Assembly: GCA_964355175.1 (NCBI GenBank)
Contig: CAYHBZ010000002.1
Span: forward strand, 204,537-268,536
Reading direction: 5' to 3'
Origin: an uncultured Gammaproteobacteria bacterium
Lineage (GTDB): Bacteria; Patescibacteriota; Patescibacteriia; Magasanikbacterales; GWA2-37-8
Length of the DNA stretch: 64,000 nucleotides
The translations under genes were made by a program, and so were the position numbers. This document shows positions 7,727 through 58,904 of the stretch, in pieces. The notes below the pieces were generated by a model. That model was not told where the DNA came from, did not search any database, and saw only the letters and a program-made list of their open reading frames with translations. Positions within the stretch are counted from its first letter, which is position 1; each line of letters opens with the position of its first letter.

Positions 7727-8036
7727 TTAAAAAATTTGTCCACATTTTTAATTTGACCTTCTTAAAATTTACTATTACTATACTCGTAGTTCTTTAGGTA
7801 TTAAACTCTATCAAACGTGGAAGTGAGGTGTGATTCCTCCACTGTGCCGCAACGGTAAAGCCCCGACTGAATCGGGGATAAGTCCGGTCTTCGTATGATA
7901 TGGTTTGTAGCTATCCTCGAGCAAGGACGAGCGAAAACAGGCCCCAAGAAAGTGCACTTATCTGTATTTTCTTGGGTTCTGATTCTCGGCGTCCTTGTTG
8001 TTTCAAGGACGCTTTTGTTTTCTCTGGAGGTGCACG

Positions 8037-8387
8037 ATGAATCGTAGGTGGTTTCTGGGTCTGTGTGGCGGTGTGGCGTTGGTGTTGGTCGGGTGTGAGT
8101 CTTCGCCCCCGATGACGCTGCTCGAGCTGCTCCAGCGGCAGGATGGAAAGGAGTTCTTGGCTGAGCGGCGGATGCTCAACGGTCACGAGACGCTGTACGT
8201 GATCGGTGTCCGGGATCAGGGCGTACAAGAGTACAGGCTGGAAGACCGGGTCAAGGGGTATTCCTGGATCTTCTACGTCGGTGACGAATACCAGCGGGTG
8301 CTGGTGGACAAGTCGCCCAGCGAATACCTGGTGGCTCCGGGTACGCGGGTCTACGTGGCCTACGAGCCCTGGCAGTCCTGGGCGTGA
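8037..8387 (+). CDS. GC-rich (about 60%) lipoprotein of unknown function (lipobox LVGC)
   Basis: MNRRWFLGLCGGVALVLVGCESS signal/lipobox; coding GC far above surrounding genome. Confidence 0.6.
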   Translation: MNRRWFLGLCGGVALVLVGCESSPPMTLLELLQRQDGKEFLAERRMLNGHETLYVIGVRDQGVQEYRLEDRVKGYSWIFYVGDEYQRVLVDKSPSEYLVAPGTRVYVAYEPWQSWA

Positions 8388-9783: not shown

Positions 9784-11424
9784 ATGAAAGCATCAGATTT
9801 ATTCGTAAAATGTCTGGAGGCCGAGGGGGTAAAATATGTGTTTGGGGTGCCGGGGGAAGAAAATTTGGACTTGCTTGAATCCATGCGTAAATCCAGTATC
9901 CGATTTATCACCACTCGTCATGAACAGGCGGCGGTTTTTATGGCCGCGACTTTTGGGCGTTTGACTGGAAAAGCCGGCGTGGCCTTGTCTACCTTGGGGC
10001 CCGGAGCTACCAATTTGGTCACCGGTGTAGCTTATGCTCAGCTGGGCGGAATGCCGCTGCTCGTGATTACCGGACAAAAGCCAATTCGTAAAAGTAAACA
10101 AGGAAGATTTCAGATTGTGGATATTGTCCAGATGATGACTCCGCTTACCAAAATGTCTGAAACAATTGTGAGCGCCGATAGAATTCCATCTCTGGTTCGT
10201 CAGGCTTTCAAATTGGCTGAATCAGAATTGCCAGGAGCCGTTCATTTGGAATTGCCGGAAGATATTGCGGCCGAAGACAGCGATACCGCCCCAATAGTGC
10301 CGGTAAAAATTCGTCGTGCCGGTCCTGATCCCAAGGCGATAAACATGACTTTGGAATTATTAAAAAAAGCCAAATCGCCAATTGTGTTGGTAGCGGCCGG
10401 AGCCAATCGTAAATTAGTGCGCAAACATTTGCAGGCCTTTTTGGATAAAACTAAAATTCCGTTTATTTCCACTCAGATGGGCAAAGGTGTTATTGATGAA
10501 GCCTCCGAACTTTATCTTGGTACCACAGCTTTAAGCGCTGGAGATTTTGTGCATAAAATGCTTGAGAAATCTGATTGTGTATTGGTGGTGGGACATAATC
10601 TCAATGAAAAGCCGCCGGTAGTTTTGAGTTCCCAAGAACGCGATGTTATTCATCTGAATTTTAACGAAGCGGATGTGGATGATGTGTATATTCCTACTTT
10701 GGAATTAATTGGAGATCTAGCTCATTCTATCTGGGCTTTGACTGAAGATATTACACCTTCGCCACATTGGAATTTTGAATATTTTTATAATTTAAAAAAT
10801 AAGTTGCAGGAACATATCAATGAAAAAAGTACGGATAATAGTTTTCCACTCAAGCCACAAAGATTGGTGGCTGACCTGGAAGCAACCTTGCCGTGTGATG
10901 GTATTTTGGCGCTCGATAATGGTATGTATAAGCTCTGGGTTGCTCGCAATTATACTGCTCATGAACAAAATTCCGTGTTGCTCGATAACGCCTTGGCGAC
11001 AATGGGAGCGGGTTTGCCCGGAGCGATGGGTGCCAAGATTTTATTTCCGAATAAAGCGGTGGTGGCCTTGGTGGGTGATGGTGGTCTGATGATGTCGTCG
11101 CAAGAAATTGAAACCGCTATTCGTCTGAAACTCAATCTCGTAGTGGTGATTGTAAATGACAGCGGCTATGGAATGATCAAATGGAAACAAGAAGGGGCAG
11201 AGTTTAATAATTTTGCTTTGGAATTTGGCAATCCTGATTTCGTGAAATTTGCCGAAAGTTTTGGCGCTCACGGCGCGCGTGTAGAGAGCGCGGCTGATTT
11301 TAAAGAAAAATTAAAACACGCTTTGGGGGCGGGAGGTGTTTGGCTTATTGATTGTCCGATAGACTATAGTGAAAATAATTTAGTTTTTGATAAAGAGCTA
11401 AAAGAAAAAACTAAAAATCTTTAA
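9784..11424 (+). CDS. thiamine-pyrophosphate-dependent enzyme, acetolactate-synthase-like large subunit family
   Basis: N-terminal TPP_enzyme_N motifs (GVPGEENLDL, TRHEQAAVFMA, STLGPGATNLVTG), C-terminal GDGG TPP-binding motif (LVGDGGLMMS); start at MKASDLF. Confidence 0.75.
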   Translation: MKASDLFVKCLEAEGVKYVFGVPGEENLDLLESMRKSSIRFITTRHEQAAVFMAATFGRLTGKAGVALSTLGPGATNLVTGVAYAQLGGMPLLVITGQKPIRKSKQGRFQIVDIVQMMTPLTKMSETIVSADRIPSLVRQAFKLAESELPGAVHLELPEDIAAEDSDTAPIVPVKIRRAGPDPKAINMTLELLKKAKSPIVLVAAGANRKLVRKHLQAFLDKTKIPFISTQMGKGVIDEASELYLGTTALSAGDFVHKMLEKSDCVLVVGHNLNEKPPVVLSSQERDVIHLNFNEADVDDVYIPTLELIGDLAHSIWALTEDITPSPHWNFEYFYNLKNKLQEHINEKSTDNSFPLKPQRLVADLEATLPCDGILALDNGMYKLWVARNYTAHEQNSVLLDNALATMGAGLPGAMGAKILFPNKAVVALVGDGGLMMSSQEIETAIRLKLNLVVVIVNDSGYGMIKWKQEGAEFNNFALEFGNPDFVKFAESFGAHGARVESAADFKEKLKHALGAGGVWLIDCPIDYSENNLVFDKELKEKTKNL

Positions 11425-11512
11425 AAAATATATAAATATATATAAATATATATTTTTCATTCATTCGGAAGTTAATTTATAAATAAATTAACTTCTCTCA
11501 TTCATTTATAAT

Positions 11513-12883
11513 ATGGCCATAATTTCTCAAAGTCCGGCAACCGGTGAAGTGTTTGCTCGATTTACTGAATTAAATAGTGATGAAATAGAAAAAAAATTGG
11601 TGCTGTCCCAAAGTGCTTTTGGCCTTTGGCGTCAGACCAATATGGAAGAGCGCGCGGTTTTGATGAAAAAAGTAGCCGCAAAATTGCGTGAACAAAAAAA
11701 TGATCTGGCCGTGCTGATGGCTCAGGAGATGGGCAAAGTGCTCAAAGCCGGTCAGGCCGAAGTGGAAAAATGCGTCGCGGTGTGTGATTTTTATGCCGAT
11801 AATGCAGCTAAATTTTTGGCTGAAGATTTTATTGCCACTGAAGCCAAAGAAAGTTTTGTGCGTTTTGATCCGCTAGGCGCCGTGCTTGCGGTGATGCCTT
11901 GGAATTTTCCTTTTTGGCAGGTGTTTCGTTTTGCCGCGCCGGCTCTAATGGCTGGAAATATCGGTCTGCTCAAACACGCCTCCAATGTGCCGCGTTGTGC
12001 CGTGAGAATGGAAGAAATTTTTTCGGAATGTGGATTTCCAGCGGGAGTTTTTCAGACTTTATTAATTGGCTCAGGAGCAATAGAAAAAATAGTTTTGGAT
12101 GATAGAATAGCGGCCGTCACTTTGACGGGCAGTGAATTTGCCGGAAGTCAGGTAGCTGCCGCGGCCGGTAAAGCTTTAAAAAAATGTGTATTGGAATTGG
12201 GTGGTAGCGATCCTTTTATTGTGTTGTCTGATGCTGATTTGGCCGGTGCGATAAAAGCGGCCGTTACCGCCAGAATGCAGAATAATGTGGGACAAAGTTG
12301 TATTGCTTCCAAAAGATTTATTGTGGAGGAATCAGTGGCGACTGAATTTACTGCCGGAATGGTGAAAGCCTTTTCTGAATTTAAAGTAGGCAATCCTTTG
12401 GCGGATGATACCAATGTGGGGCCGCTGGTAAACGAAAGCTCTCTAAAAGAAATTGACAGTCAGGTGCAGAAAACTTTGGCGATGGGCGCCAAGTTGGAAT
12501 TTGGTGGTAGTAGGATGGGGGAAGTAGGAAGTTTTTATTTGCCTACGGTTGTCAGTGGAGTGACCAAAGGCATGCCGCTGTGCGATGAAGAAGTGTTTGG
12601 TCCGGTAGCACCAATTATTGTGGTAAAAAATTCTGATGAAGCGATAAAAATTGCCAATGATTCTCCGTATGGTCTGGGAGCTACGATTTGGACTGCTGAT
12701 TTGGACAAAGCCAAAAAGATGGCGGCTCAATTGGAGAGCGGCAGTATCTATATCAATGGGGCGATGAAATCTGATGTGCGGTTGCCTTTTGGCGGTATCA
12801 AAAAATCTGGTTTTGGACGAGAGCTCGGGTCCTATGGTATTCGTGAATTTGTGAATGTGAAGACCGTTGTAATTGAAAAATAG
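11513..12883 (+). CDS. NAD(P)-dependent aldehyde dehydrogenase (succinate-semialdehyde-DH-like)
   Basis: ALDH family motifs: LELGGSDPFIV, catalytic Cys region GQSCIASKRF, EEVFGPV. Confidence 0.8.
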   Translation: MAIISQSPATGEVFARFTELNSDEIEKKLVLSQSAFGLWRQTNMEERAVLMKKVAAKLREQKNDLAVLMAQEMGKVLKAGQAEVEKCVAVCDFYADNAAKFLAEDFIATEAKESFVRFDPLGAVLAVMPWNFPFWQVFRFAAPALMAGNIGLLKHASNVPRCAVRMEEIFSECGFPAGVFQTLLIGSGAIEKIVLDDRIAAVTLTGSEFAGSQVAAAAGKALKKCVLELGGSDPFIVLSDADLAGAIKAAVTARMQNNVGQSCIASKRFIVEESVATEFTAGMVKAFSEFKVGNPLADDTNVGPLVNESSLKEIDSQVQKTLAMGAKLEFGGSRMGEVGSFYLPTVVSGVTKGMPLCDEEVFGPVAPIIVVKNSDEAIKIANDSPYGLGATIWTADLDKAKKMAAQLESGSIYINGAMKSDVRLPFGGIKKSGFGRELGSYGIREFVNVKTVVIEK

Positions 12884-16680: not shown

Positions 16681-17505
16681 TTAGCCGGCCAGCACCCGGC
16701 GAACGTAGGCCGAAACTTCAGGAGAGTCAGCGAAGAGCAAGGGCGGCATCTTCACTTTATCCCACGGAACCTTCGAACCGTCGAGACATTCCACCACCCC
16801 GCCCAGCGCGAGGATCATCGGCGCGGTAGCGGCCACATCCCAGATCATGGCCCGGTCAGAAACCCAAGCCCGAGTTCGACCCACCGCCAACTCCCAGCCG
16901 CTGTACACGCTCGGGAGATTGCGCGGATAGCGGAACGCGTTGCGCAGGGGCGTGATGACCGTGTCCCGAAAGTGGGACGGGACAGCCTTGCAGTCGTCCA
17001 GGCCGATCATGGACATCCTGGGCTCATTACGCCTCAGCCGCCGCGGCTGTTCGCCCATGAAGACGAGGCCCTTATCGGGGGAAACCATTGCCCCGACATT
17101 GAATTCCGGCATGTAGACGACGCCGCCGATTGGATGACCAGCCTGCTTGTACCCGATACTCACAGAGTATTCCGGACAGCCGTTGGTGGCCAGTGCTGAA
17201 CCATCGCGGGGATCTACGATGAAACAGGTTTCAGGCACCAGTGTGTCGAGCCCGCCCTGTTTGGGTACAGTGACGAGCTTGACGCCTGGACATTCTCTCA
17301 TGATTTCCGTCACGATCGCCTCGAGGCCTTCTTCCACCACGATCGGGATCTCCGGCCAATGCCGATGGAGAGCCCGCACAATCACGAGTTGGGCGTCAGC
17401 GTCGCCGCTGGCCGTGTGTTCGTCGATGTACCGTTCGCCGTGGTCGAAGCTTCCTTTCAACACTTTTCCGGCCTCGACGGCAGTCTCAAGCAAATGATTC
17501 CACAT
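16681..17505 (-). CDS. GC-rich (about 62%) inositol-monophosphatase / CysQ-family phosphatase
   Basis: IMPase signature FIVDPRDGS and WDVAATAPMILALGG; coding GC about 20 points above flanks. Confidence 0.75.
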   Translation of the reverse strand: MWNHLLETAVEAGKVLKGSFDHGERYIDEHTASGDADAQLVIVRALHRHWPEIPIVVEEGLEAIVTEIMRECPGVKLVTVPKQGGLDTLVPETCFIVDPRDGSALATNGCPEYSVSIGYKQAGHPIGGVVYMPEFNVGAMVSPDKGLVFMGEQPRRLRRNEPRMSMIGLDDCKAVPSHFRDTVITPLRNAFRYPRNLPSVYSGWELAVGRTRAWVSDRAMIWDVAATAPMILALGGVVECLDGSKVPWDKVKMPPLLFADSPEVSAYVRRVLAG

Positions 17506-44761: not shown

Positions 44762-44776
44762 ATATAAAAAATATTG

Positions 44777-44849
44777 TGCGCCCAGATGGGATTGAACCAT
44801 CGACCTATTGCTTATAAGACAATTGCTCTAACCACTGAGCTATGGGCGC
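44777..44849 (-). tRNA. tRNA-Ile (anticodon UAU)
   Basis: hand-folded: acceptor GCGCCCA/TGGGCGC, D-arm TAGCTCAGTGGTTAGAGCA, anticodon loop CTTATAA, T-arm GGTCGATGGTTCAATCCCATC. Confidence 0.75.
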
Positions 44850-50250: not shown

Positions 50251-50445
50251 TTAGCGGTTAATTAAAGTCTGGATACCAAGGTTGAACATATAGTCGAGCG
50301 CTGTGAAAAACAAAGCGACGCCTACGCTCAAAGCCACCACAACTAGGCTGTAGTTGATAGTCTGCTGTTTGGTTGGCCAGGTGACTTTCGTCATTTCGGC
50401 ATAAGAGCCGAGCAAATAATTTTTGATTTTACCAAAAATGTTCAT
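50251..50445 (-). CDS. secE: preprotein translocase subunit SecE
   Basis: 64 aa single TM, position immediately upstream of nusG. Confidence 0.8.
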   Translation of the reverse strand: MNIFGKIKNYLLGSYAEMTKVTWPTKQQTINYSLVVVALSVGVALFFTALDYMFNLGIQTLINR

Positions 50446-50622
50446 AAATAAGGGTTATTTGGCTAATATTAGCCAAAGTTAATATTTTTTGATTTTTAAA
50501 ACAGCCTTGCGGCTGATTTATGTTCTTATAATATCATAAATATGGTAAAAGTCAATAGCGGGTATGCACAGGGTATTTTGGCTAATATGAGGGATTTATT
50601 GGAATTTATCGCTGTAAACCTC

Positions 50623-50651
50623 TTGACAAGAATGCCTAAAAGTAGTATAAT
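50623..50651 (+). promoter_or_regulatory. consensus sigma70 promoter TTGACA-N17-TATAAT
   Basis: perfect hexamers, 17-bp spacer. Confidence 0.55.
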
Positions 50652-50657
50652 TATCTG

Positions 50658-50777
50658 TTATTTAAAAATAACACAAATACCCAAGTCGTGCCTACTGTTA
50701 CTTTTTTAGAGAGAAGTAAACAATTGGTCTGGTGTATTGTTGTATATAAACTCTCTCTAATCGGAGAGTTTTTTTAT
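50658..50777 (+). ncRNA. candidate about 120-nt small RNA (promoter to intrinsic terminator CTCTC-TAATCG-GAGAG + T7)
   Basis: consensus promoter followed 100 nt later by hairpin + U-run; no ORF. Confidence 0.3.
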
Positions 50778-50780
50778 TCT

Positions 50781-50822
50781 GTTCTTTACAAAAGATATTG
50801 AGTCGATACTAAACAAAGAAGA
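50781..50822 (+). promoter_or_regulatory. island promoter module GTTCTTTACAAA (first of four TTCTTTACAAT-type copies)
   Basis: motif repeated at 52055, 54416, 55792, each upstream of an island gene. Confidence 0.45.
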
Positions 50823-50943
50823 ATCTTTGCTTGGTATCGGCTCGGTGTCCAAGATCAACGCCGGGCCACAGGTGTGGCAATCTAAAGTCGCAAAACGCGA
50901 CAGGTTTCGACCCCACCTAGTGGGTCTTGTGTTGGAGTACATC

Positions 50944-51279
50944 ATGAACTGTGCTATCCTGATTTCCCTCGTCGCCTTGTTCTGTATCGTGATCATCATC
51001 CGCGCCAAGGAATTTTCATGGCATGCATACGGCCTGGTGCTCGCCGTTGAGTTCGTCGCGGAAATCTTTCGCGAGAACAACAAGATCGGGGACACCGCCG
51101 AGAACGCCATGTTCTGGGCGGCCATGTTCGGTCTCCTCGTCCCGCTTTTCTTGGCGGTGTGGTTTCGTACTGGCAAGAAGGCCGGTCTCACTCCTCGCGA
51201 GCGTGGCCTGGCACTGGCGGCTAATGCTGCCTTGGCAGATAAGGATGCCAGCGTCCATTCCGACAGCAGGCGTCTCTAG
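50944..51279 (+). CDS. GC-rich small 3-TM membrane protein, paralog A
   Basis: SD GGAG before ATG; paralogous to 51565-51894 (shared R-x-KEFSW-x-A...LVLAV-FV core); upstream part of the 50827 ORF is hairpin-dense and probably 5'UTR. Confidence 0.5.
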   Translation: MNCAILISLVALFCIVIIIRAKEFSWHAYGLVLAVEFVAEIFRENNKIGDTAENAMFWAAMFGLLVPLFLAVWFRTGKKAGLTPRERGLALAANAALADKDASVHSDSRRL

Positions 51280-51287
51280 TAGGTTTA

Positions 51288-51367
51288 GGACTTTGCCTGC
51301 GCAAAGCGCACAGATTATCAAAGGTTGAGCTAGAAAAAGTAGCTCCTGATGATATCTGAAAAAGTCT
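51288..51367 (+). ncRNA. structured RNA motif A (GGACUUUG ... CUGAAAAAGUC closing helix with two internal hairpins)
   Basis: paralogous to motif B with compensatory changes in internal hairpins. Confidence 0.45.
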
Positions 51368-51478
51368 ATCCCCAAGTGTCTGAAGGGCGAAAGTCGCCCA
51401 ACATTACGATGACAGTCGTAATGATTATCAACACGAAGTGAGGGATAAAAAATCCGAAGCGCTGTCACGCTTCGGAAC

Positions 51479-51528
51479 CCTGTCTGCGAATTTTGTTCGC
51501 ACTGATGAGTCCTTTAGGACGAAACAGG
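51479..51528 (+). ncRNA. hammerhead ribozyme, type III (copy 1)
   Basis: CCUGU-C|UGCGAA-UUUUG-UUCGCA-CUGAUGA-GUCC-UUUA-GGAC-GAA-ACAGG: complete catalytic core, GUC cleavage triplet, stems I/II/III. Confidence 0.85.
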
Positions 51529-51564
51529 AAAGATCTTTCACAAACGGCGCGTGCGCCTTATAGG

Positions 51565-51894
51565 ATGGATGCTGTCATGGTCATGCATGGTTTTTTCGTT
51601 GAGTACGGGTTCCTCGTGCTCGTCTTCATGGCGGTCTTCTGTGGGATCATCACTTACCGTGGCCGCGAGTTTTCGTGGCCGGCGTTTCTGGTGCTTCTTG
51701 CGGTGGACTTCGTGGTCAGCTTTTTTCAGAATCGAGAAGAGGCCAACCTCATTTTCGCCTGGGATTTTCTGGCCAACTGGACGGTTGTGATCGGGATCAT
51801 GGTCCAGATCGGCATGGGACTTTGGTTCAATACACATCCTCCTCGTTGCCCGAAATGTGGGTATAGCCTCCATTTGAGGCCCCCACCATCGTAG
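51565..51894 (+). CDS. GC-rich small 3-TM membrane protein, paralog B, ending in C-x2-C
   Basis: start at MDAVMVM after the ribozyme; C-terminal CPKCGY. Confidence 0.5.
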   Translation: MDAVMVMHGFFVEYGFLVLVFMAVFCGIITYRGREFSWPAFLVLLAVDFVVSFFQNREEANLIFAWDFLANWTVVIGIMVQIGMGLWFNTHPPRCPKCGYSLHLRPPPS

Positions 51895-51899
51895 GTTTT

Positions 51900-51987
51900 G
51901 GACTTTTCCTTCTCGAGTAAAATCGAGAACAGTATTGCAGACAGTTGAGACGATTAAATTCGCTCCTGTCGGGATCTGAAAAAGTCC
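51900..51987 (+). ncRNA. structured RNA motif B (GGACUUUU ... CUGAAAAAGUCC closing helix)
   Basis: same architecture as motif A; hairpins TCTCGAG-TAAAA-TCGAGA and GAGACGA..TCGCTC replace those of A. Confidence 0.45.
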
Positions 51988-52025
51988 ACAATCCCTTAGT
52001 TTCCAAAATTTGGAAATTGAGAGAT

Positions 52026-52046
52026 GAAAATCACTCTGTGGTTTTC
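52026..52046 (+). terminator. island hairpin module GAAAATCAC-NNN-GTGGTTTTC (copy 1 of 3)
   Basis: same hairpin at 54387-54407 and 56741-56762, each just upstream of a TTCTTTACAAT promoter or the island edge. Confidence 0.45.
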
Positions 52047-52054
52047 ATTAAATG

Positions 52055-52086
52055 GTTCTTTACAATTTATATCTACGCTAAAAAAT
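52055..52086 (+). promoter_or_regulatory. island promoter module GTTCTTTACAATTTA ... TAAAAAAT
   Basis: repeated motif. Confidence 0.45.
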
Positions 52087-52290
52087 AAATGGCCTCCGCT
52101 ATCTATATCTTTTTGTTTCAAGAAAATATAGACAGCGGAGGTCAAAGAGACAGCCGTGGTGAAGGTTGGGGCCGACGGGCCTCCATCCTCCTTATTAAGG
52201 GGAAAACAGGATGGGGGTCGCAAGTTGCGTCCCCAACTAAGTTCATCGCGGCGTTGACGGACGCCAAATTTCCAAGTTCCGGAGGATGCC

Positions 52291-54219
52291 ATGTTCAAGA
52301 ATTTCTTCAATCTCACGCTCTACACCAACACCTCCACCAAGGGTCCGATCGTCGAAAACTTCTTCCGGCGGATCGTCATCGCGATCTGCTGTCAGGGGAC
52401 CTTCGACTGGATCATGTGGTACTTCGCCTTGGTGTTCGCCATGCACAACAGCGTGCTGGCGGCCATCTTGGCGACGGTGATCGTGCTGGGCGTGGTCCAG
52501 CTCGACATCGCGATCGTGACCGCCGACGACAAGGATGTCAACGTGAAGCGGCGTTGGGCCAGCCTGGCCTGGCGTTTCCTCTTCACGTTCCTGGTCGCGG
52601 GCATCACGTCGGTGCCGCTCGAGCTGAACTGGTTTCAGAGTGAGATCACGCACAGGCTCGACGCCAAACAGAAGAAGGAGATCGACCAGATCCGGACGTC
52701 CGCCATGGTCCAGGAGAAGGCGCGCATCGACAAGGAGATCGAAGACGTCACCGCCCAACTGGCACACGAAGCGTCCTCGACGCAGGGCGCCGCGGTGGCT
52801 GACCTGCAGAAGTACGAAGGTGATCGGGCGGCGATACTGGCGCAGATGGTGACGAAGGAGAGCGACGAAGAGGCGGCGTTCCTGAAGCGAATCGATGATA
52901 AGGAGAAAGACGCGTACGAGGAGTCGGCTGGTAAGGGAGCGAGTGGCCAGAGGGGCTGCAAGGACTCATGCAGGCTGAAGCTCGGGCAGGCGAAACAATG
53001 GCGTGAGGATCTCGCCAACAAGAAGATCGCTCACTCCCAGGCGGTCATCGACTTCAACAAGGAAACCCAAGACCACCTCGTTTCGCTGCGCGCGAAGCGG
53101 GACACGACCACTGGCTCCAGCCTCAAAGACATGAAAGAGCAGTTGGGGGGGCTCCGCAAGGAGCGCAAGGACAAGGTCGAAGAACTCCGCAAGATGGACC
53201 CCGAACGGGTTGCCGACCTCTATGGCGGCAAATTCCAGAAGGAATTCGGCTTCCAAGACAGGTACGATACTCTCGAACAGATGCGTTTGGAAAGCTCGGC
53301 CGTCAACTGGGCAATCTGGGCATGCCGCGTCATTGCGGCCATCATGGGGTTTCTCGTGCTTGGTATGGCGCTCTCGGCGCCTACGGAAGTGAAGGAGTAC
53401 TTCTCAGTGGCAGCACAGGCGGAGGCTGGCGATCCGTACGCCAAGAAGGTCATGGGCATCATGGGCTACGAGAATTTCAAGGACGCCGCCCTGACTCCGA
53501 AGGCCCGCAAGGCTCTCGTGGAACTGTTCATGGTTCGTCAAGAACTGTGGGCCGTCGTGATGGAGCTGGAACAGCAACTGGTCAGCGTCGTCGTCCCCGA
53601 CGAACGCACCGGACTGTATCTGAGCAAGCTCCGGATCGAAGGTATGATCCATGCCATGTGGGTGCAGAAAGGCGCCGACGCGATGAAAAAGCTCGGCAAG
53701 GCTGAAGAAGAGGTGCGGCGTGCCGGTCAGAAGGTCCCGTCGTGGCCGACGGACAAGCTGGGTCAGGACCCGCGCCTGACCGACCCGTGGAAGATCGACG
53801 AACGGCGACTGGCCAGCTTCGGCTGGGAGTCTCCCGAGGAGATCATCACCGCGGGCAAGCTGGGTCTCAAGAATATCACTGGCCATCGCCTCATGCTGCG
53901 TCAGCGGCTCGAGGAGATGGAGGCGACCCTCCAGGAGAAGATCAGTGGCAACTCCACGGTCAGCTTCGAAGAGATCCGTCGCCATCAGAACCAGGGATAT
54001 CGCGAGAAGATCCTGCCGACGTTGAACGACATCCGGTCCAGCGAGGACGCCGTCCTCAAGGCGCACTTCGAGGTGCCCACCTGGCCGGATGACTTCGCCG
54101 ATCCGCGCGGTGGACTCTACCAGCGGCTCTGCCTGCTCTCGGAAGACGAGCTGCGTCAGCGCTATGACTGGAAGGGGATCGCCATGCCGGGACTGACCAC
54201 CCCGACCGCTACAGCGTAG
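52291..54219 (+). CDS. GC-rich 642-aa membrane protein: 3 N-terminal TM helices, about 230-aa coiled coil, 4th TM, C-terminal globular region (DUF4407-like architecture, tentative)
   Basis: SD GGAGG 5 nt upstream; TM and heptad-rich segments read from translation; 230-nt hairpin-rich 5'UTR. Confidence 0.6.
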   Translation: MFKNFFNLTLYTNTSTKGPIVENFFRRIVIAICCQGTFDWIMWYFALVFAMHNSVLAAILATVIVLGVVQLDIAIVTADDKDVNVKRRWASLAWRFLFTFLVAGITSVPLELNWFQSEITHRLDAKQKKEIDQIRTSAMVQEKARIDKEIEDVTAQLAHEASSTQGAAVADLQKYEGDRAAILAQMVTKESDEEAAFLKRIDDKEKDAYEESAGKGASGQRGCKDSCRLKLGQAKQWREDLANKKIAHSQAVIDFNKETQDHLVSLRAKRDTTTGSSLKDMKEQLGGLRKERKDKVEELRKMDPERVADLYGGKFQKEFGFQDRYDTLEQMRLESSAVNWAIWACRVIAAIMGFLVLGMALSAPTEVKEYFSVAAQAEAGDPYAKKVMGIMGYENFKDAALTPKARKALVELFMVRQELWAVVMELEQQLVSVVVPDERTGLYLSKLRIEGMIHAMWVQKGADAMKKLGKAEEEVRRAGQKVPSWPTDKLGQDPRLTDPWKIDERRLASFGWESPEEIITAGKLGLKNITGHRLMLRQRLEEMEATLQEKISGNSTVSFEEIRRHQNQGYREKILPTLNDIRSSEDAVLKAHFEVPTWPDDFADPRGGLYQRLCLLSEDELRQRYDWKGIAMPGLTTPTATA

Positions 54220-54386
54220 ATAGAGTGGAATCGCTCAAGTGCACAATGTCGCAGACAATTTCGCGACACGGTGACGAAGAGCAATTCTCAAAGGGTTAGG
54301 ACGCCCTGGTCCGAGCAGTGTCGAAAGATACTGCTCGGACCAAAGTCCTTCACTTAGTAGCTAAAAATATTTGGATACTGAGTGAA

Positions 54387-54407
54387 GAAAATCACTTTGT
54401 GGTTTTC
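54387..54407 (+). terminator. island hairpin module GAAAATCAC-TTT-GTGGTTTTC (copy 2)
   Basis: repeat of 52026-52046. Confidence 0.45.
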
Positions 54408-54415
54408 TTAAAAAA

Positions 54416-54455
54416 GTTCTTTACAATTTAGGTTATGGTAAAAATTGATTTTCAA
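54416..54455 (+). promoter_or_regulatory. island promoter module GTTCTTTACAATTTAGG
   Basis: repeated motif. Confidence 0.45.
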
Positions 54456-54581
54456 ATCTCGTACGCTTTGTGAGCATATTTTTTGTGCTTAAAAAGCGTA
54501 CGAGATCTTTTCCGTAGCGCCAACAATTTCTCAAAGATGCGCCCGAGATGTTATCGGATGTGCTTAGGGAAAATTCCAAAG

Positions 54582-55646
54582 AGGAACCTGATGCCAAAAT
54601 TTTGGCTTCTCGTCGCTCTCGTCTGCGCCATTGGGTGTGGACGCGAAGAGCGTCGATTCAATCAACCCGATCCCGCTTCGGTCGAACTGCAGAATTCTAT
54701 CGACGAGCGTGCCAAGCTGGCGCGTGAGAACAAGGAATTGCGCAAGAAGCTCGAAGCGGCGCAGCAGGTCAAGAAGCCCGTCGAAGATGATGAGCGCCTC
54801 TGCACTCTGGAGTACGCCAAGGCCAAGGATCCTGGGAAACTCGAAGCCATCACGGCCAAGTGGGCGGCGGCAAAGGCGGAATACGAGAAGCAGCTCGCCG
54901 AGCGGGAGAAGAAGATTTCAGAAGCGGAATCGTTGCCTAGTGACCCGCTTCCGGATTTCCCCTTTTCTCCTCCTTTGAATTGGGACATCAGTGTGCCCAG
55001 TCCGGGCATGAAGGCCATTTATGGAGAGGATAAACTCTGCCATTTGAAGGAGGTGGCGCAAGAACCGTTCCGGTCTTTCGGCGGCACGAACAACCATTGG
55101 AGGATGTTTATCCGCGAGGCCATGGACAACTTCCAGGACAACGACATCGAAGATGATCTAGAGTACGACGACTTTCGGTCATCCGTACGGACCATCGAGA
55201 TGCTGAAGGATCCGGGCGAAGGTCGCCAACTGGCCGATAATCTTCTAAGCGTCTTGGTCAAGAGTCCTACGTCCATGCAGTGGGCGGTTGGCTTGATCTT
55301 GCGCCTGGAAAATCAGGACTTCTTGAAGGTGCGTCTGCGGCGGCTCTACAAGGCCTCCAAGACTGACTTCGCGAAGCTCGACGCTGACATGCTGACCGCG
55401 CTCGGAAAGTACATGAAGGAGCATCCCGAGATCAAGGTGATGCAAAACCCCGGGAGCGATGTTTACGGTCCGGAGTTCGACTTCGGCCCTTTTGCCCAGG
55501 ACGGCAACTACTACAAGGGTCTGCTTTTCCGGTATTGGCGCTACAAGGAAGAAGTCCAGGGACGTGGCAAGGGAGACAAGTTCATTCGTGATCTGCAGAA
55601 GACCATGAAGGAGGTGGCCAAGGGCATGAAAGTCAATTTGCAATGA
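54582..55646 (+). CDS. GC-rich lipoprotein (lipobox AIGCG) with N-terminal coiled coil, unknown function
   Basis: start MPKFWLLVALVCAIGCG; heptad region ARENKELRKKLEAAQQ... Confidence 0.55.
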   Translation, partial: RNLMPKFWLLVALVCAIGCGREERRFNQPDPASVELQNSIDERAKLARENKELRKKLEAAQQVKKPVEDDERLCTLEYAKAKDPGKLEAITAKWAAAKAEYEKQLAEREKKISEAESLPSDPLPDFPFSPPLNWDISVPSPGMKAIYGEDKLCHLKEVAQEPFRSFGGTNNHWRMFIREAMDNFQDNDIEDDLEYDDFRSSVRTIEMLKDPGEGRQLADNLLSVLVKSPTSMQWAVGLILRLENQDFLKVRLRRLYKASKTDFAKLDADMLTALGKYMKEHPEIKVMQNPGSDVYGPEFDFGPFAQDGNYYKGLLFRYWRYKEEVQGRGKGDKFIRDLQKTMKEVAKGMKVNLQ

Positions 55647-55716
55647 CCGAAGCGACAATCGTCGCGTCGGTCTGCGCCATAACCTCGTGGGGGCCGATGC
55701 GAAAGTGTCGGTCCCC

Positions 55717-55777
55717 GGAGTCTGCCGGTTTTGCCGGCACTGATGAGTCCAGAAATTTATTTTCAAGGACGAAACTC
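55717..55777 (+). ncRNA. hammerhead ribozyme, type III (copy 2)
   Basis: GGAGU-C|UGCCGG-UUUUG-CCGGCA-CUGAUGA-GUCC-(16-nt loop)-GGAC-GAA-ACUC. Confidence 0.85.
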
Positions 55778-55791
55778 AAGTATAATAAATT

Positions 55792-55826
55792 GTTCTTTAC
55801 AATGTAGGTTGTGTAAAATAAATTTC
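55792..55826 (+). promoter_or_regulatory. island promoter module TGTTCTTTACAATGTAGG ... TAAAAT
   Basis: repeated motif. Confidence 0.45.
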
Positions 55827-55970
55827 TTGAAAAAGAAATGCGAGTACAATGTTTATTTTTACAAGTAAATAATGCACTCGTATTTCCAAAAGATGTTGTC
55901 TAGTTGGCCACGATGGTCAGCTGTGCAAGCATCGCGAGATCCCTCACCAATCGGGTGAGAGGAGGGTGCC

Positions 55971-56558
55971 ATGGTTCGTGGTTTCTGGTTTCTGGTGGTT
56001 CTGGCGGTGCTGATGGCGAGCTGCAACGGCAAGGGCGAGCGCGAGAAGCGGGATCAGAAGACCCACGAGGAGCTGATGAAGGGGCTCGATGGCGAGAACG
56101 AAGCCTGGAAGAAGCTCCCTGCTGAACCGCTCAAGCCTGTGGTGAACGAGGGCTTGCTCTTGCGGCACTCGCGCCCCCAGCCGCGTCCGTGGGTGGATCT
56201 GCCAGGTATGGCGACGCCTGTGGAGCTCGCAAAAGCGGCGACGTTGCACGACGGGGAACCCCGGGATCTGCTGGAGACGGTCCACAAATCCGTCCATCCG
56301 TCAGAATTCCTGGAAGGCGACCCGTCCCCGTACCTGGAGTTCAATGTCAGTGATCGGGTGGGTCGTAGCCAATACAGCCTGAAGCGTATCAAGGTGCTTG
56401 AGCGGAGTTGCCGCGCTGAAACCGTGGAGAGCCTCGAGATGTGCTTGTCGGAGCAGATCAGCATCCTCCTCATGCATGTCGAGGCTCTCGAGAAAGAGAA
56501 CGAGCGTCGGCACAAGGCGACGGCGAAGCTCAGGAATGCGATCAAGAAAAAGCGTTGA
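55971..56558 (+). CDS. GC-rich lipoprotein (lipobox MASCNG) with C-terminal coiled coil/basic tail
   Basis: MVRGFWFLVVLAVLMASCNGKGE; C-term EALEKENERRHKATAKLRNAIKKKR. Confidence 0.55.
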   Translation: MVRGFWFLVVLAVLMASCNGKGEREKRDQKTHEELMKGLDGENEAWKKLPAEPLKPVVNEGLLLRHSRPQPRPWVDLPGMATPVELAKAATLHDGEPRDLLETVHKSVHPSEFLEGDPSPYLEFNVSDRVGRSQYSLKRIKVLERSCRAETVESLEMCLSEQISILLMHVEALEKENERRHKATAKLRNAIKKKR

Positions 56559-56639
56559 GCCGTGCGACGAAATTCGTCGCGAAGTTCACCTACAACCTCA
56601 ACGGGATCAGGCGCGCGAAGTACGCGTGTCTGGTCCCAA

Positions 56640-56700
56640 GGAGTCTGCCGGTTTTGCCGGCACTGATGAGTCCAAAGAATTTTGTCTAGGACGAAACTCA
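56640..56700 (+). ncRNA. hammerhead ribozyme, type III (copy 3)
   Basis: GGAGU-C|UGCCGG-UUUUG-CCGGCA-CUGAUGA-GUCC-(15-nt loop)-GGAC-GAA-ACUCA; stem I/III identical to copy 2, loop II differs. Confidence 0.85.
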
Positions 56701-56767
56701 AAAATAAAATCCTTTAGTCTCTGTTCGGAGATTGAGGGATGAAAATCACGCAAGTGGTTTTTGTCAA

Positions 56768-56812
56768 AACAAAAAAACCACCGATTCTCTAAACGGCGGT
56801 TTTTTGTTTTTA
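56768..56812. terminator. bidirectional terminator at island/gyrB junction
   Basis: ACCACCG-loop-CGGCGGT hairpin flanked by A7 and T6. Confidence 0.65.
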
Positions 56813-56816
56813 TTTT

Positions 56817-58904
<2,088 letters not shown>

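Follow-up and report, generated by a model that had tools for sequence, protein, structure and literature searches.

Why does a bacterium with a low-GC genome carry, between two housekeeping genes, some 6 kb of DNA whose genes are rich in GC and encode envelope proteins? The DNA in question, hereafter the island, occupies about 50565-56815 of a 64,000-nucleotide stretch of contig CAYHBZ010000002.1 (GenBank assembly GCA_964355175.1); this whole stretch is called the window, and coordinates refer to it unless another locus is named. The answer favored here, to which we give a probability of roughly 55%, is that the island is a chromosomal, lineage-specific and hypervariable locus for envelope proteins, inserted between gyrB and secE in a subclade of Candidatus Magasanikiibacteriota, inherited since then, and organized as ribozyme-processed cassettes. 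Each cassette would consist of an open reading frame (ORF) rich in GC at its third codon positions, encoding a small polytopic membrane protein, a DUF4407 coiled-coil protein or a lipoprotein, that is set in a conserved AT-rich scaffold. The scaffold would comprise the island's own promoter and terminator-bearing leader, an invariant 11-nucleotide box, hairpins in the 5ʹ untranslated regions (UTRs), structured 3ʹ UTRs and type III hammerhead ribozymes. These RNA parts are the most solid and most testable portion of the finding.

The island carries five co-oriented genes, as a preliminary description of the DNA had proposed. Their GC content at third codon positions (GC3) is given with each.

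50944..51279, + strand: g1, a small membrane protein of 111 residues with about three transmembrane helices and no family match; GC3 0.73
51565..51894, + strand: g2, a small protein of 109 residues with three transmembrane segments and a C-terminal CPKCG; GC3 0.67
52291..54219, + strand: g3, a DUF4407 membrane protein of 642 residues; GC3 0.82
54591..55646, + strand: g4, a putative lipoprotein of 351 residues with an N-terminal helical hairpin; GC3 0.70
55971..56558, + strand: g5, a putative lipoprotein of 195 residues; GC3 0.77

The surroundings of these genes identify the island as an insertion. The flanking genes are housekeeping genes: secE, nusG, rplK and queA lie to the left of the island, gyrB and ftsW to its right. 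In five more distant relatives from the candidate phyla radiation (CPR; L008, L009, L011, L012 and L016), gyrB is followed by secE, nusG and rplK after only 111-383 bp, and the spacing between gyrB and secE here is about 6.4 kb. Because gyrB lies directly beside secE in these relatives, the stretch of about 6.3 kb is an insertion into a conserved junction. The same locus in other genomes agrees with this, related islands being found there and distant relatives being island-less. The host is a Candidatus Magasanikiibacteriota bacterium, one of the ultra-small CPR bacteria, since its gyrB is 97% identical to that of the closest species representative, a metagenome-assembled genome from Lac Pavin (L007), whose sequence stops inside gyrB and does not cover the island region. 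Larger gaps between gyrB and nusG in L010, L014, L015, L063 and L075 were rejected as counterparts; they are unrelated inserts of host-like GC, with no match to the hammerhead core and no exact copy of the box (the L063 gap has a single box match with one mismatch).

Composition sets the island apart as well. In 500-nucleotide windows, GC is 0.50-0.62 over about 50750-56750 and about 0.35-0.45 in the neighboring DNA, and the rest of the window has a mean of 0.419 (standard deviation 0.042). Almost all of the excess resides at third codon positions: GC3 is 0.67-0.82 in the five island ORFs versus 0.42-0.47 in seven flanking host genes, while first and second positions are alike in both sets and the intergenic DNA inside the island has a GC of only 0.41-0.46. 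The figure of about 60% GC given earlier is right for the ORFs (53-60%) but not for the island as a whole, which stands at 54%. The broader description, of a high-GC insertion of envelope-protein genes that lies between secE and gyrB and is made from repeated regulatory modules, is supported.

A compositional jump would also arise if DNA of a high-GC organism had been joined to a CPR contig during assembly, and the jump is all that speaks for such a chimera. An identical island lies inside a 463,850-bp contig in ENA, an identical g3 protein is recorded on a 953,736-bp contig of an NCBI genome, and the island is present in three Logan assemblies, one independent Logan contig joining queA-secE to it. 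Moreover, related alleles are linked to secE in L004, L005 and L092 and to gyrB in L092, L100, L101 and L104, and AT-rich spacers alternate with GC-rich ORFs across the whole island. With several independent assemblies in agreement and both junctions spanned in related contigs, the island is genuine; a chimeric assembly is excluded, its probability being practically nil.

Of the features by which genomic islands are commonly recognized, a compositionally deviant insertion in conserved synteny is found here (GC3 and the gyrB-secE gap), and mobility genes, a flanking tRNA gene and direct repeats are not found at the locus. As first described, the borders are free of integrase, transposase and tRNA genes. 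No gene for an integrase, transposase or recombinase lies within about 8 kb on either side, where the genes are queA, rplK, nusG, secE, gyrB, ftsW and uvrB, and no tRNA gene lies closer than 5.9 kb, the nearest being at 44776. The left junction is not the host terminator that it had been taken for; the island's own promoter and terminator-bearing leader are located there, at about 50565-50780. At the other end, the oriented L097 locus has an extra ORF on the + strand between the island terminator and gyrB (11200-12276), so the right junction is not the same in all lineages.

Evidence for the favored reading comes from comparison with about 15 related loci, which were collected from contigs encoding homologous proteins and from one DNA-pattern scan of JGI metagenomes with the motif of a structured RNA, here called the head-tail RNA. 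The scaffold is common to all of these loci and the gene content differs:

L092, L096 and L097: leader, box, g1-like ORF, head-tail RNA, hammerhead, g2-like ORF, head-tail RNA, hairpin and terminator, between secE and gyrB
L102: leader and box with g3 directly behind
L103: three other small ORFs, a hammerhead, an internal second promoter with leader and terminator, then g3
L104: g3 comes last, with gyrB as the next gene
L100 and L101: g4 is the last gene, and g5 is missing
L105 and L106: sigma-70 promoter, a variant of the box within 10-20 nucleotides, then a g3 homologue that is 33% (L105) or 30% (L106) identical

At every related locus, the ORFs have a GC of 0.53-0.64 in low-GC surroundings. 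When the window is compared with L005, identity is 85-99% in intergenic blocks, as against about 70% for g3 at the nucleotide level and 63% for its protein. In L092 and L097, the UTRs are 66-83% identical to those of the window and the host genes 76-78%, and the identity of the g1 and g2 ORFs is 0.51-0.53, equal to shuffled background; the small-ORF proteins fall into different BLAST families, which differ between lineages. The scaffold is thus shown to be far more conserved than the proteins, the ORFs of which diverge, are unalignable or are absent across loci.

Three of the scaffold elements are hammerhead ribozymes.

51477..51530, + strand: HHR1, type III hammerhead; RF00008 at 52.1 bits, above the gathering score of 48.5; cleavage predicted after GUC, at 51484/51485
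55715..55780, + strand: HHR2, type III hammerhead; RF00008 at 40 bits (E 3.5e-6); cleavage predicted at 55722/55723
56638..56702, + strand: HHR3, type III hammerhead; RF00008 at 35.3 bits (E 7.8e-5); cleavage predicted at 56645/56646

The Rfam alignments show complete cores in all three (CUGAUGA, CGAAAC and GUC), and the pattern CTGATGAGTCC..GGACGAAAC occurs three times in the 64 kb versus zero expected. HHR2 and HHR3 score below the gathering score because of their long stem II loops. Syntenic hammerheads are found in 11 further related loci, and copies syntenic with HHR1 occur in L004, L005, L092, L093, L096, L097 and L103. Furthermore, stem I of HHR2 covaries, with GCCGG/CCGGC in the window and L100 versus GUAAG/CUUAC in L098 and L101. 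By core and covariation the three elements are type III hammerheads, for which self-cleavage is predicted. A hammerhead had been placed after each gene; this stands for g1, g4 and g5, but g2 and g3 are followed by other structured RNAs.

Clustered hammerheads that flank single genes in bacterial polycistronic RNAs have been reported to cleave in vitro, and most of these cases are in prophages near integrases (Perreault et al. 2011, PMC3088659); a literature search for hammerheads in CPR bacteria found nothing useful. The reported clusters resemble the island in having several hammerheads with canonical cores between co-oriented genes of unknown or variable identity, whose presumed role is to cut the transcript. 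Unlike them, the island is at a fixed chromosomal CPR locus without phage genes and has GC3-rich ORFs, a box, its own promoter and leader, and a second structured RNA.

Prophages being where such clusters are best known (PMC3088659), the island might be a domesticated prophage remnant with hammerheads inherited from the phage; the small membrane proteins would then be a holin and antiholin or act in superinfection exclusion, and the lipoproteins and the coiled-coil protein would act like spanins or in exclusion. In size and topology g1 and g2 do match class I holins, and control of the island looks tight, with a palindrome-flanked promoter and a terminator-bearing leader. However, integrase, endolysin, capsid and tail genes and att-like repeats are all missing, the flanks are housekeeping genes, and the island keeps the same locus with host-like synonymous divergence. 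PHROGs returned nothing below E 9e-4, a match that covers the coiled coil only; tblastn found no relative of g3 among 50,697 phage records and 72,556 plasmids; a search of the BFVD structures gave no fold match for g3 at E<=0.001; and scaffold patterns gave chance matches only in IMG/VR. Nor do g4 and g5 look like Rz/Rz1 spanins, a family against which the preliminary description had wished to see them compared: they are separate, non-overlapping genes with their own UTRs, they have no spanin match in PHROGs, and no endolysin accompanies them. To our knowledge, CPR bacteria have no outer membrane, in which case spanins would be without a target. A phage-derived lysis or exclusion cassette, one of the functions first suggested, is therefore not borne out by PHROGs, tblastn, BFVD or the gene content, and we regard a prophage origin as quite unlikely.

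The RNAs at the ends of the small genes form the second group of scaffold elements.

51275..51375, + strand: head-tail three-way-junction RNA, copy 1; covariance-model match of 100.6 bits
51887..51995, + strand: head-tail three-way-junction RNA, copy 2, at the stop codon of g2; covariance-model match of 93 bits

The head-tail RNA is about 100 nucleotides long and consists of a closing stem P1 (GGACUUU/AAAGUCY; GGACUUU/AAAGUCU in copy 1), a variable hairpin P2 and a long irregular hairpin P3-P4, with invariant unpaired nucleotides. The upstream stop codon falls in the conserved head AGGUUNNGGAC or at most two codons from it, that of g1 being in or just before the head. In an alignment of 12 distinct copies, 95% of the cells are paired and 10 pairs have compensatory changes; none of 500 shuffles was as good, and slid controls were 29-50% paired. 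The covariance model (R1) matches only 3ʹ ends of the g1 and g2 type and nothing elsewhere in the window or in island-less relatives. A loose head-tail pattern gave five matches in IMG/VR, all of them chance matches in coding sequence, and the patterns of the hairpin, of the region upstream of the hammerhead and of the g3 leader gave chance matches or none there.

Two known identities were tried for this RNA and rejected. It is not a disguised hammerhead, as CUGAUGA is present only in the first copy and junction strands of 3, 0 and 2 nucleotides do not fit the core; and no other known ribozyme was matched, the twister, twister-sister, pistol, hatchet, hairpin and hepatitis delta virus models giving nothing at E<=5. 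Over 50400-57000, a cmscan search (E<=5) found no Rfam 15 family for the head-tail RNA, the g3 leader or the island leader, and returned only the three hammerheads and chance-level matches.

Other structured UTRs complete this group:

50792..50943, + strand: g1 5ʹ UTR with a hairpin whose pairing is kept while its sequence differs among lineages
51376..51476, + strand: second structured domain in the g1-g2 spacer, with a UAUCCC...GGGAUA closing stem, two inner hairpins and the hairpin UCCGAAGCG...CGCUUCGGA, read from the sequence
52066..52290, + strand: g3 5ʹ UTR, a conserved multi-hairpin leader of about 225 nucleotides
54291..54352, + strand: short head-tail-like element in the g3 3ʹ UTR (AAGGGUUAGGAC, a hairpin, then AAAGUCC), read from the sequence
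54427..54590, + strand: g4 5ʹ UTR with the long hairpin AUCUCGUACGCUUU...AAAGCGUACGAGAU, in which GUACGC/GCGUAC becomes GCACGC/GCGUGC in L100 and L101

The g1 5ʹ UTR is 71% identical to those of L092 and L097, where the ORFs downstream are unalignable, and the second domain of the g1-g2 spacer is 85-89% identical in L004 and L005 while the ORFs diverge. The g3 5ʹ UTR has 67 predicted pairs in seven lineages, 10 of them compensatory, and its first 100 nucleotides (52065-52165) are 99% identical in L005, where the g3 protein is 63% identical. The short element behind g3 is not detected by model R1; it is kept in L102, L103 and L104, and in L105 its GGAC/GUCC is replaced by GGGU/ACCC, a compensatory change.

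The contrast between fixed UTRs and changing ORFs also allows a bolder and not very probable reading, in which the scaffold would be a CPR-specific platform for the expression and exchange of envelope genes, with ORFs precisely swapped or renewed in the space bounded by a fixed 5ʹ UTR and, from the stop codon onward, by a 3ʹ RNA. The head-tail RNA would then be a new functional RNA class, serving alongside the hammerheads as a self-cleaving ribozyme, as a switch coupled to termination or translation, or as a protein-binding stabilizer. In the same reading, a GC3 of 0.7-0.8 would be actively held in a genome of 42% GC, either because very stable mRNAs are selected or because the locus is a recombination hotspot with GC-biased gene conversion.

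Short repeated signals mark the joints between cassettes. The 11-nucleotide box GTTCTTTACAA occurs exactly four times in the 64 kb, always on the + strand and within the island, and precedes g1, g3, g4 and g5; g2 is preceded by a hammerhead instead. A hairpin of the form GAAAATCAC-N3/4-GTGGTTTT(C/T) has copies at 52026, 54387 and 56741, that is, before g3, before g4 and at the end of the island.

50781..50791, + strand: box 1, upstream of g1; exact copy, at the same place in all related loci
52026..52046, + strand: hairpin GAAAATCAC-tct-GTGGTTTTC, a cassette-end mark that in two-gene islands adjoins the final terminator
52055..52065, + strand: box 2, upstream of g3; exact copy
54387..54407, + strand: hairpin GAAAATCAC-ttt-GTGGTTTTC
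54416..54426, + strand: box 3, upstream of g4; exact copy
55792..55802, + strand: box 4, upstream of g5; exact copy
56741..56810, + strand: terminal hairpin GAAAATCAC-gcaa-GTGGTTTTT, then the terminator hairpin AAAAAAACCACCG...CGGCGGTTTTTT beside the gyrB stop codon

The same ending of terminal hairpin and terminator is found in L092, L097, L100, L101 and L104, and a CUUAG...UUGAG hairpin (51996-52022) stands just before the first cassette-end hairpin. The repeated module that was said to precede every gene is thus real in part: the box is found before all genes but g2, and the hairpin only before g3 and g4, its third copy closing the island. A pairing of the box with the Shine-Dalgarno sequence, which RNAalifold proposed for g3, was not counted, consisting as it does of three G-U, two A-U and one G-C pairs against a generic purine-rich sequence.

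Junctions of this kind invite comparison with integrons, in which the hairpin and box would be recombination sites of a site-specific cassette array. Tandem, co-oriented and variable cassettes with a repeated hairpin-bearing junction at one locus are common to both; here the same hairpin and box junction bounds the cassettes, the box starts with GTT like the integron core site, and relatives have arrays of one to five ORFs at the one locus. Nevertheless, the region 8 kb to either side has no integrase or recombinase, and neither IntI nor attI is found. The junction reads GAAAATCAC-N3-GTGGTTTTC followed by GTTCTTTACAA, its GTTCTTT does not fit the GTTRRRY core, and the hairpin does not have the paired R and L boxes of attC (RYYYAAC ... 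GTTRRRY). Unlike integron cassettes, each cassette here has long UTRs and probably a promoter of its own, and ORFs are replaced inside conserved 5ʹ and 3ʹ UTRs and not together with them, a pattern that homologous exchange or divergence fits better. An integron-like array is therefore very improbable.

Upstream of box 1, the island has regulatory sequences of its own.

50461..50474, no strand: perfect palindrome GGCTAATATTAGCC, operator-like, upstream of the island promoter; its function is predicted
50623..50651, + strand: consensus sigma-70 promoter TTGACA-17-TATAAT belonging to the island; 12/12 matches in a promoter scan
50652..50780, + strand: leader RNA of about 125 nucleotides, a candidate attenuator or small RNA, from a terminator scan and an alignment of eight copies

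The promoter is kept in L004, L005, L092 and L097 and also in L102, L105 and L106, and L103 has two copies. Three hairpins are conserved in the leader alignment. From 5ʹ to 3ʹ, the leader contains the palindromic hairpin GTTATTTAAAAATAAC, the conserved segment AAUACCCAAGUCGUGCCUAC and an intrinsic terminator (50748-50778), and it includes the invariant stretch AAUACCCAA(A/G)UCGUGCCUAC; it has no Rfam match at E<=5. The AGAGAG of a leader hairpin is complementary to the CTCTCT of the terminator, from which we infer an anti-terminator pairing (AGAGAG/CUCUCU), and the leader could be an attenuator or a stand-alone small RNA. At 1790-1995 of L103, a second complete set of palindrome, promoter, leader and terminator lies between the block of small ORFs and g3; because this copy sits within the island, the leader module acts as a cassette component.

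The palindrome GGCTAATATTAGCC is kept beside the promoter in L004, L005, L092, L097, L102, L103 and L105 and is not found in the gyrB-secE spacer of the island-less L008. Palindromes of type GGCTAAnnnTAGCC with at most two mismatches from GGCTAATATTAGCC are located at 12883, 19491, 42592 and 50461 of the window (chance expectation estimated at about 0.4). In every related locus, one or two such palindromes flank the island promoter. They may be the operator of a shared regulator.

The proteins themselves are less easily placed. No significant match to PHROGs, PADLOC or NCBIfam came up for any of the five, and Pfam matched only g3. The 3-transmembrane proteins g1 and g2 are paralogues, as had been described (32% identity over 74 residues, E 2e-12; about three hydrophobic segments each), and the sole homologue of g2 among 5.8 billion proteins is P0007, at 88% identity. 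Against Pfam DUF4407 (PF14362), g3 scores 68.4 bits where the cut-off is 31.3 (E 8.5e-19, residues 34-348), in agreement with the family suspected beforehand, and its homologues P0012, P0015, P0018, P0021 and P0033 match the family as well. An AlphaFold2 model with a mean predicted local distance difference test (pLDDT) score of 86.8 is all-helical and shows three N-terminal membrane helices, an antiparallel coiled coil of 95 residues and a fourth membrane helix, the architecture already read from the sequence; the C-terminus follows as two helical hairpins, each with a conserved VPxWP...DPR...W motif behind it. In the order of transmembrane segment, coiled coil and transmembrane segment g3 is like other DUF4407 proteins, but its subfamily has an extra C-terminal domain of about 280 residues with the two VPxWP..DPR..W motifs.

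The nearest homologues of g3 are P0002 (87%) and P0003 (63%), and an exhaustive phmmer search puts the full-length subfamily at about 100 sequence clusters at the 50% identity level. No relative appeared when the genomes of GTDB species representatives were scanned with the g3 alignment. P0020, a homologue with 30% identity, stands alone among ordinary metabolic and housekeeping genes in a non-CPR genome, and so the g3 family is confined neither to CPR bacteria nor to islands. The g3 structure has no BFVD fold match at E<=0.001, a profile search of the PDB by sequence found nothing, and the literature on DUF4407 holds incidental mentions only, nothing of use.

The two predicted lipoproteins begin with MPKFWLLVALVCAIGC (g4, Cys16 in AIGC) and MVRGFWFLVVLAVLMASC (g5, Cys18 in MASC). 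Each has a signal peptide and a cysteine in a relaxed lipobox, but the strict pattern [LVI][ASTVIGC][GASC]C is unmatched at position -3, which is A in g4 and M in g5. No similarity appeared when g4 was compared with g5. For g4, three homologues of 45-55% identity were found, the AlphaFold2 model is poor (pLDDT 58) and no match came from a profile search of the PDB. All four g4 sequences share the region ALVCAIGCGRE unchanged, and the C-terminus is likewise invariant. The first 19 and last 10 residues (54591-54650 and 55617-55646) are nearly or fully invariant, although the homologues are 45-55% identical overall. This invariance of the ends suggests a constraint at the nucleotide (RNA) level that reaches into the ends of the ORF; the folding z-score fits such a constraint at the 5ʹ end (-2.7) and shows none at the 3ʹ end (-0.4).

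A set of envelope proteins under fast change might also be a membrane-anchored system of anti-phage defence or abortive infection, in which g3 would be a coiled-coil sensor or effector loosely like ZorA or KwaA, with accessory membrane proteins, and hypervariability the outcome of an arms race with phages. In favor of this, every product belongs to the envelope, evolution is rapid, close relatives have gained and lost cassettes, and allele divergence does not follow a clock. PADLOC gives g3 a weak match to ZorA3 (E 0.035, residues 126-297). That match is not significant, however, and covers only the coiled coil; partners like ZorB, ZorC or ZorD are not found (PADLOC-DB v2), no effector domain such as a nuclease, ATPase or NTPase is found in the island, and P0020 lies among housekeeping genes and not in a defence island. 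The membrane-associated defence module of the preliminary description does not correspond to any known system on this evidence, and we consider a defence role unlikely.

The rates at which the parts of the island change bear on its age. Between the window and L004, synonymous divergence (dS) is 0.44 in g3, 0.46 in nusG and 0.36 in secE; since g3 and host genes have the same dS, the two islands have co-diverged with the chromosome. The ratio of nonsynonymous to synonymous divergence (dN/dS) is 0.17-0.35 for g3 and 0.02-0.09 for host genes. In L004, L005 and L104, g3 protein identity is 87%, 63% and 37% while host DNA is 92%, 92% and 88% identical, the host comparison leaning on short fragments of 85 nucleotides in L005 and 208 in L104; this pattern, which is not clock-like, points to old allele classes or allele replacement. 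Homologues of g3 with 30-44% identity still have a GC of 0.56-0.60 within flanks of 0.33-0.45. Among synonymous changes polarized by parsimony, AT-to-GC changes number 16 on 106 site-branches and GC-to-AT changes 37 on 618, for an equilibrium GC3 of about 0.7, or about 0.6 when mis-polarization is allowed for (host about 0.45), an estimate from 53 changes and a distant outgroup, with which parsimony inflates weak-to-strong counts. Additionally, folding of ORF windows relative to synonymous-codon shuffles has a mean z of about -1.9 in the island and about -0.5 in the host and is strongest at ORF ends, an excess of mRNA folding that is suggestive only. High GC3 appears to be actively maintained, by selection for structured, stable mRNA or by GC-biased gene conversion.

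These numbers speak against the notion that the GC anomaly reflects one or more unameliorated transfers from a high-GC donor and that the scaffold is ordinary host regulatory DNA. Full-length g3 homologues do exist in non-CPR bacteria, the window has two other lone high-GC genes (one of the inositol monophosphatase family and one for a lipoprotein behind a B12 riboswitch), and the near-host values of GC1 and GC2 make the shift a signature of codon choice. But synonymous divergence equal to that of the host means that the island has had time for its composition to ameliorate, a GC of about 0.6 is seen in homologues from other low-GC CPR contigs even where identity falls to 30%, and the equilibrium GC3 is estimated well above the host's 0.45. 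Furthermore, the box, hammerhead and head-tail RNA match nowhere else in the window, and a leader copy travels with cassettes in L103. Because high GC lasts down to 30% protein identity, the island does not look like a recent unameliorated transfer, and the recent acquisition from a high-GC donor that had been suggested is not upheld, the closest pair having co-diverged and a GC of 0.58-0.60 being kept to 30% identity; transfer as an explanation of the anomaly is rather improbable.

With the chromosomal, inherited envelope-protein locus as the favored reading, the island would work as follows. Transcription would start at the leader promoter, where pairing of AGAGAG with the CUCUCU of the terminator might gate read-through, and probably also at internal promoters associated with the box. 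Self-cleavage of the hammerheads at 51484/85, 55722/23 and 56645/46 would part the cistrons: HHR1 would stay on the g2 mRNA as a structured 5ʹ cap, and in the g4 and g5 mRNAs HHR2 and HHR3 would fix the 3ʹ terminus, downstream of stacked hairpins. With structured ends on both sides of each mRNA, dosage and lifetime could be set separately for each protein, in a natural counterpart of ribozyme insulators, and the conserved scaffold could supply homology for allele replacement. In synthetic insulators of the RiboJ type, a hammerhead upstream of a coding sequence removes variable RNA and leaves a structured 5ʹ end, and HHR1 is so placed before g2; unlike RiboJ, the arrangement here is natural, conserved in lineages and present also at 3ʹ ends (after g4 and g5).

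Besides the short host fragments and the small number of polarized changes on which two of the estimates above depend, several points weigh against this picture. Where transcription begins, whether it passes the leader terminator, whether the ribozymes cleave in vivo and how stable the mRNAs are have been predicted from the DNA. No informative match of family, structure or context that would point to the function of the five proteins was found in the searches above. The surface or host-interaction module first suggested may apply; a variable cell-surface module that faces phage or a partner organism is the most likely reading, and it draws on location, rapid change and presence or absence only. 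Proteins that change fast and differ in kind and number within a preserved scaffold do match what diversifying or frequency-dependent selection at the surface, by phage or the partner organism, would leave, but dN/dS is below 1 throughout. With two other lone high-GC genes in the window, repeated import from a high-GC source is conceivable. As for the box, the preliminary description made it a promoter element about 17 bp from an A/T-rich -10; TTTACA, a spacer of 15-18 nucleotides and a TAnnAn hexamer can be lined up before g1, g3 and g5, but g4 does not conform. In L105 and L106, a variant of the box stands just downstream of a full sigma-70 promoter, and the box would therefore lie in the RNA.

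A strong hairpin begins a few nucleotides downstream of the TAnnAn hexamer. A perfect TATAAT is located between HHR2 and box 4 (55781-55786), 5 nucleotides before the box; if used, it would start transcription at the box itself, which makes the promoter reading of the box less certain. The box could instead be an element that acts in RNA or resembles ops. Operons governed by RfaH through ops (JUMPstart), and the regulons of NusG paralogues, have a short invariant element of 11-12 nucleotides that is repeated in the 5ʹ leaders of an envelope cluster of foreign composition. The box, however, has no similarity to ops (GGCGGTAGCGTG) and no NusG paralogue is visible in the window, and the analogy applies to this alternative reading of the box only.

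Flexible islands of the replacement type, which encode envelope components such as O-antigen, capsule or glycotype, offer a further comparison. They share with the island a fixed site between core genes, variable content, an odd composition, envelope-exposed products and alleles more divergent than their flanks. They differ in that they encode glycosyltransferases and usually have a lower GC, whereas the products here are small membrane proteins, a DUF4407 protein and lipoproteins, and the island has a higher GC and is built on an RNA scaffold. The island is unlike both of its closest systems, prophage hammerhead clusters and replacement-type islands, in being chromosomal in CPR bacteria, free of phage genes, higher in GC than its genome and RNA-scaffolded. 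It does not have the marks of an integron, a prophage lysis cassette, a spanin pair or a catalogued defence system; its ribozymes are type III hammerheads and g3 is a DUF4407 protein.

A few other features of the window may be recorded. The inositol-monophosphatase-family gene (16681-17505, - strand; 274 residues, Pfam E 4.6e-19) has a GC of about 0.55-0.61 in surroundings of 0.42 and is the second compositional outlier of the window, without box or hammerhead elements. An adenosylcobalamin riboswitch (7792-7936, + strand; 63.3 bits) precedes the third high-GC gene (7995-8387, + strand; GC 0.56), which encodes a putative lipoprotein of 130 residues (LVGC) without a Pfam match and may specify a B12-related surface protein. 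ARAGORN places a tRNA-Ile with the anticodon UAU at 44776-44849 (- strand); most bacteria decode AUA with a lysidine-modified CAU tRNA, which makes this one notable.

CPR bacteria (Patescibacteria) need contact with other cells, and the molecules at this interface, as well as their regulation, are almost unknown. The fixed position between gyrB and secE makes the set of envelope proteins trackable in metagenomes, as a marker of surface diversity at the level of strains. Natural hammerheads in a chromosomal gene cluster outside any phage bear on the long-standing question of why bacteria have hammerheads. The head-tail junction, the leader of g3 and that of the island, three conserved and covarying RNAs new to Rfam, can all be tested in vitro. 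Finally, a synonymous GC that seemingly stays far from the genomic equilibrium over long divergence offers a system in which to separate selection on mRNA from biased gene conversion.

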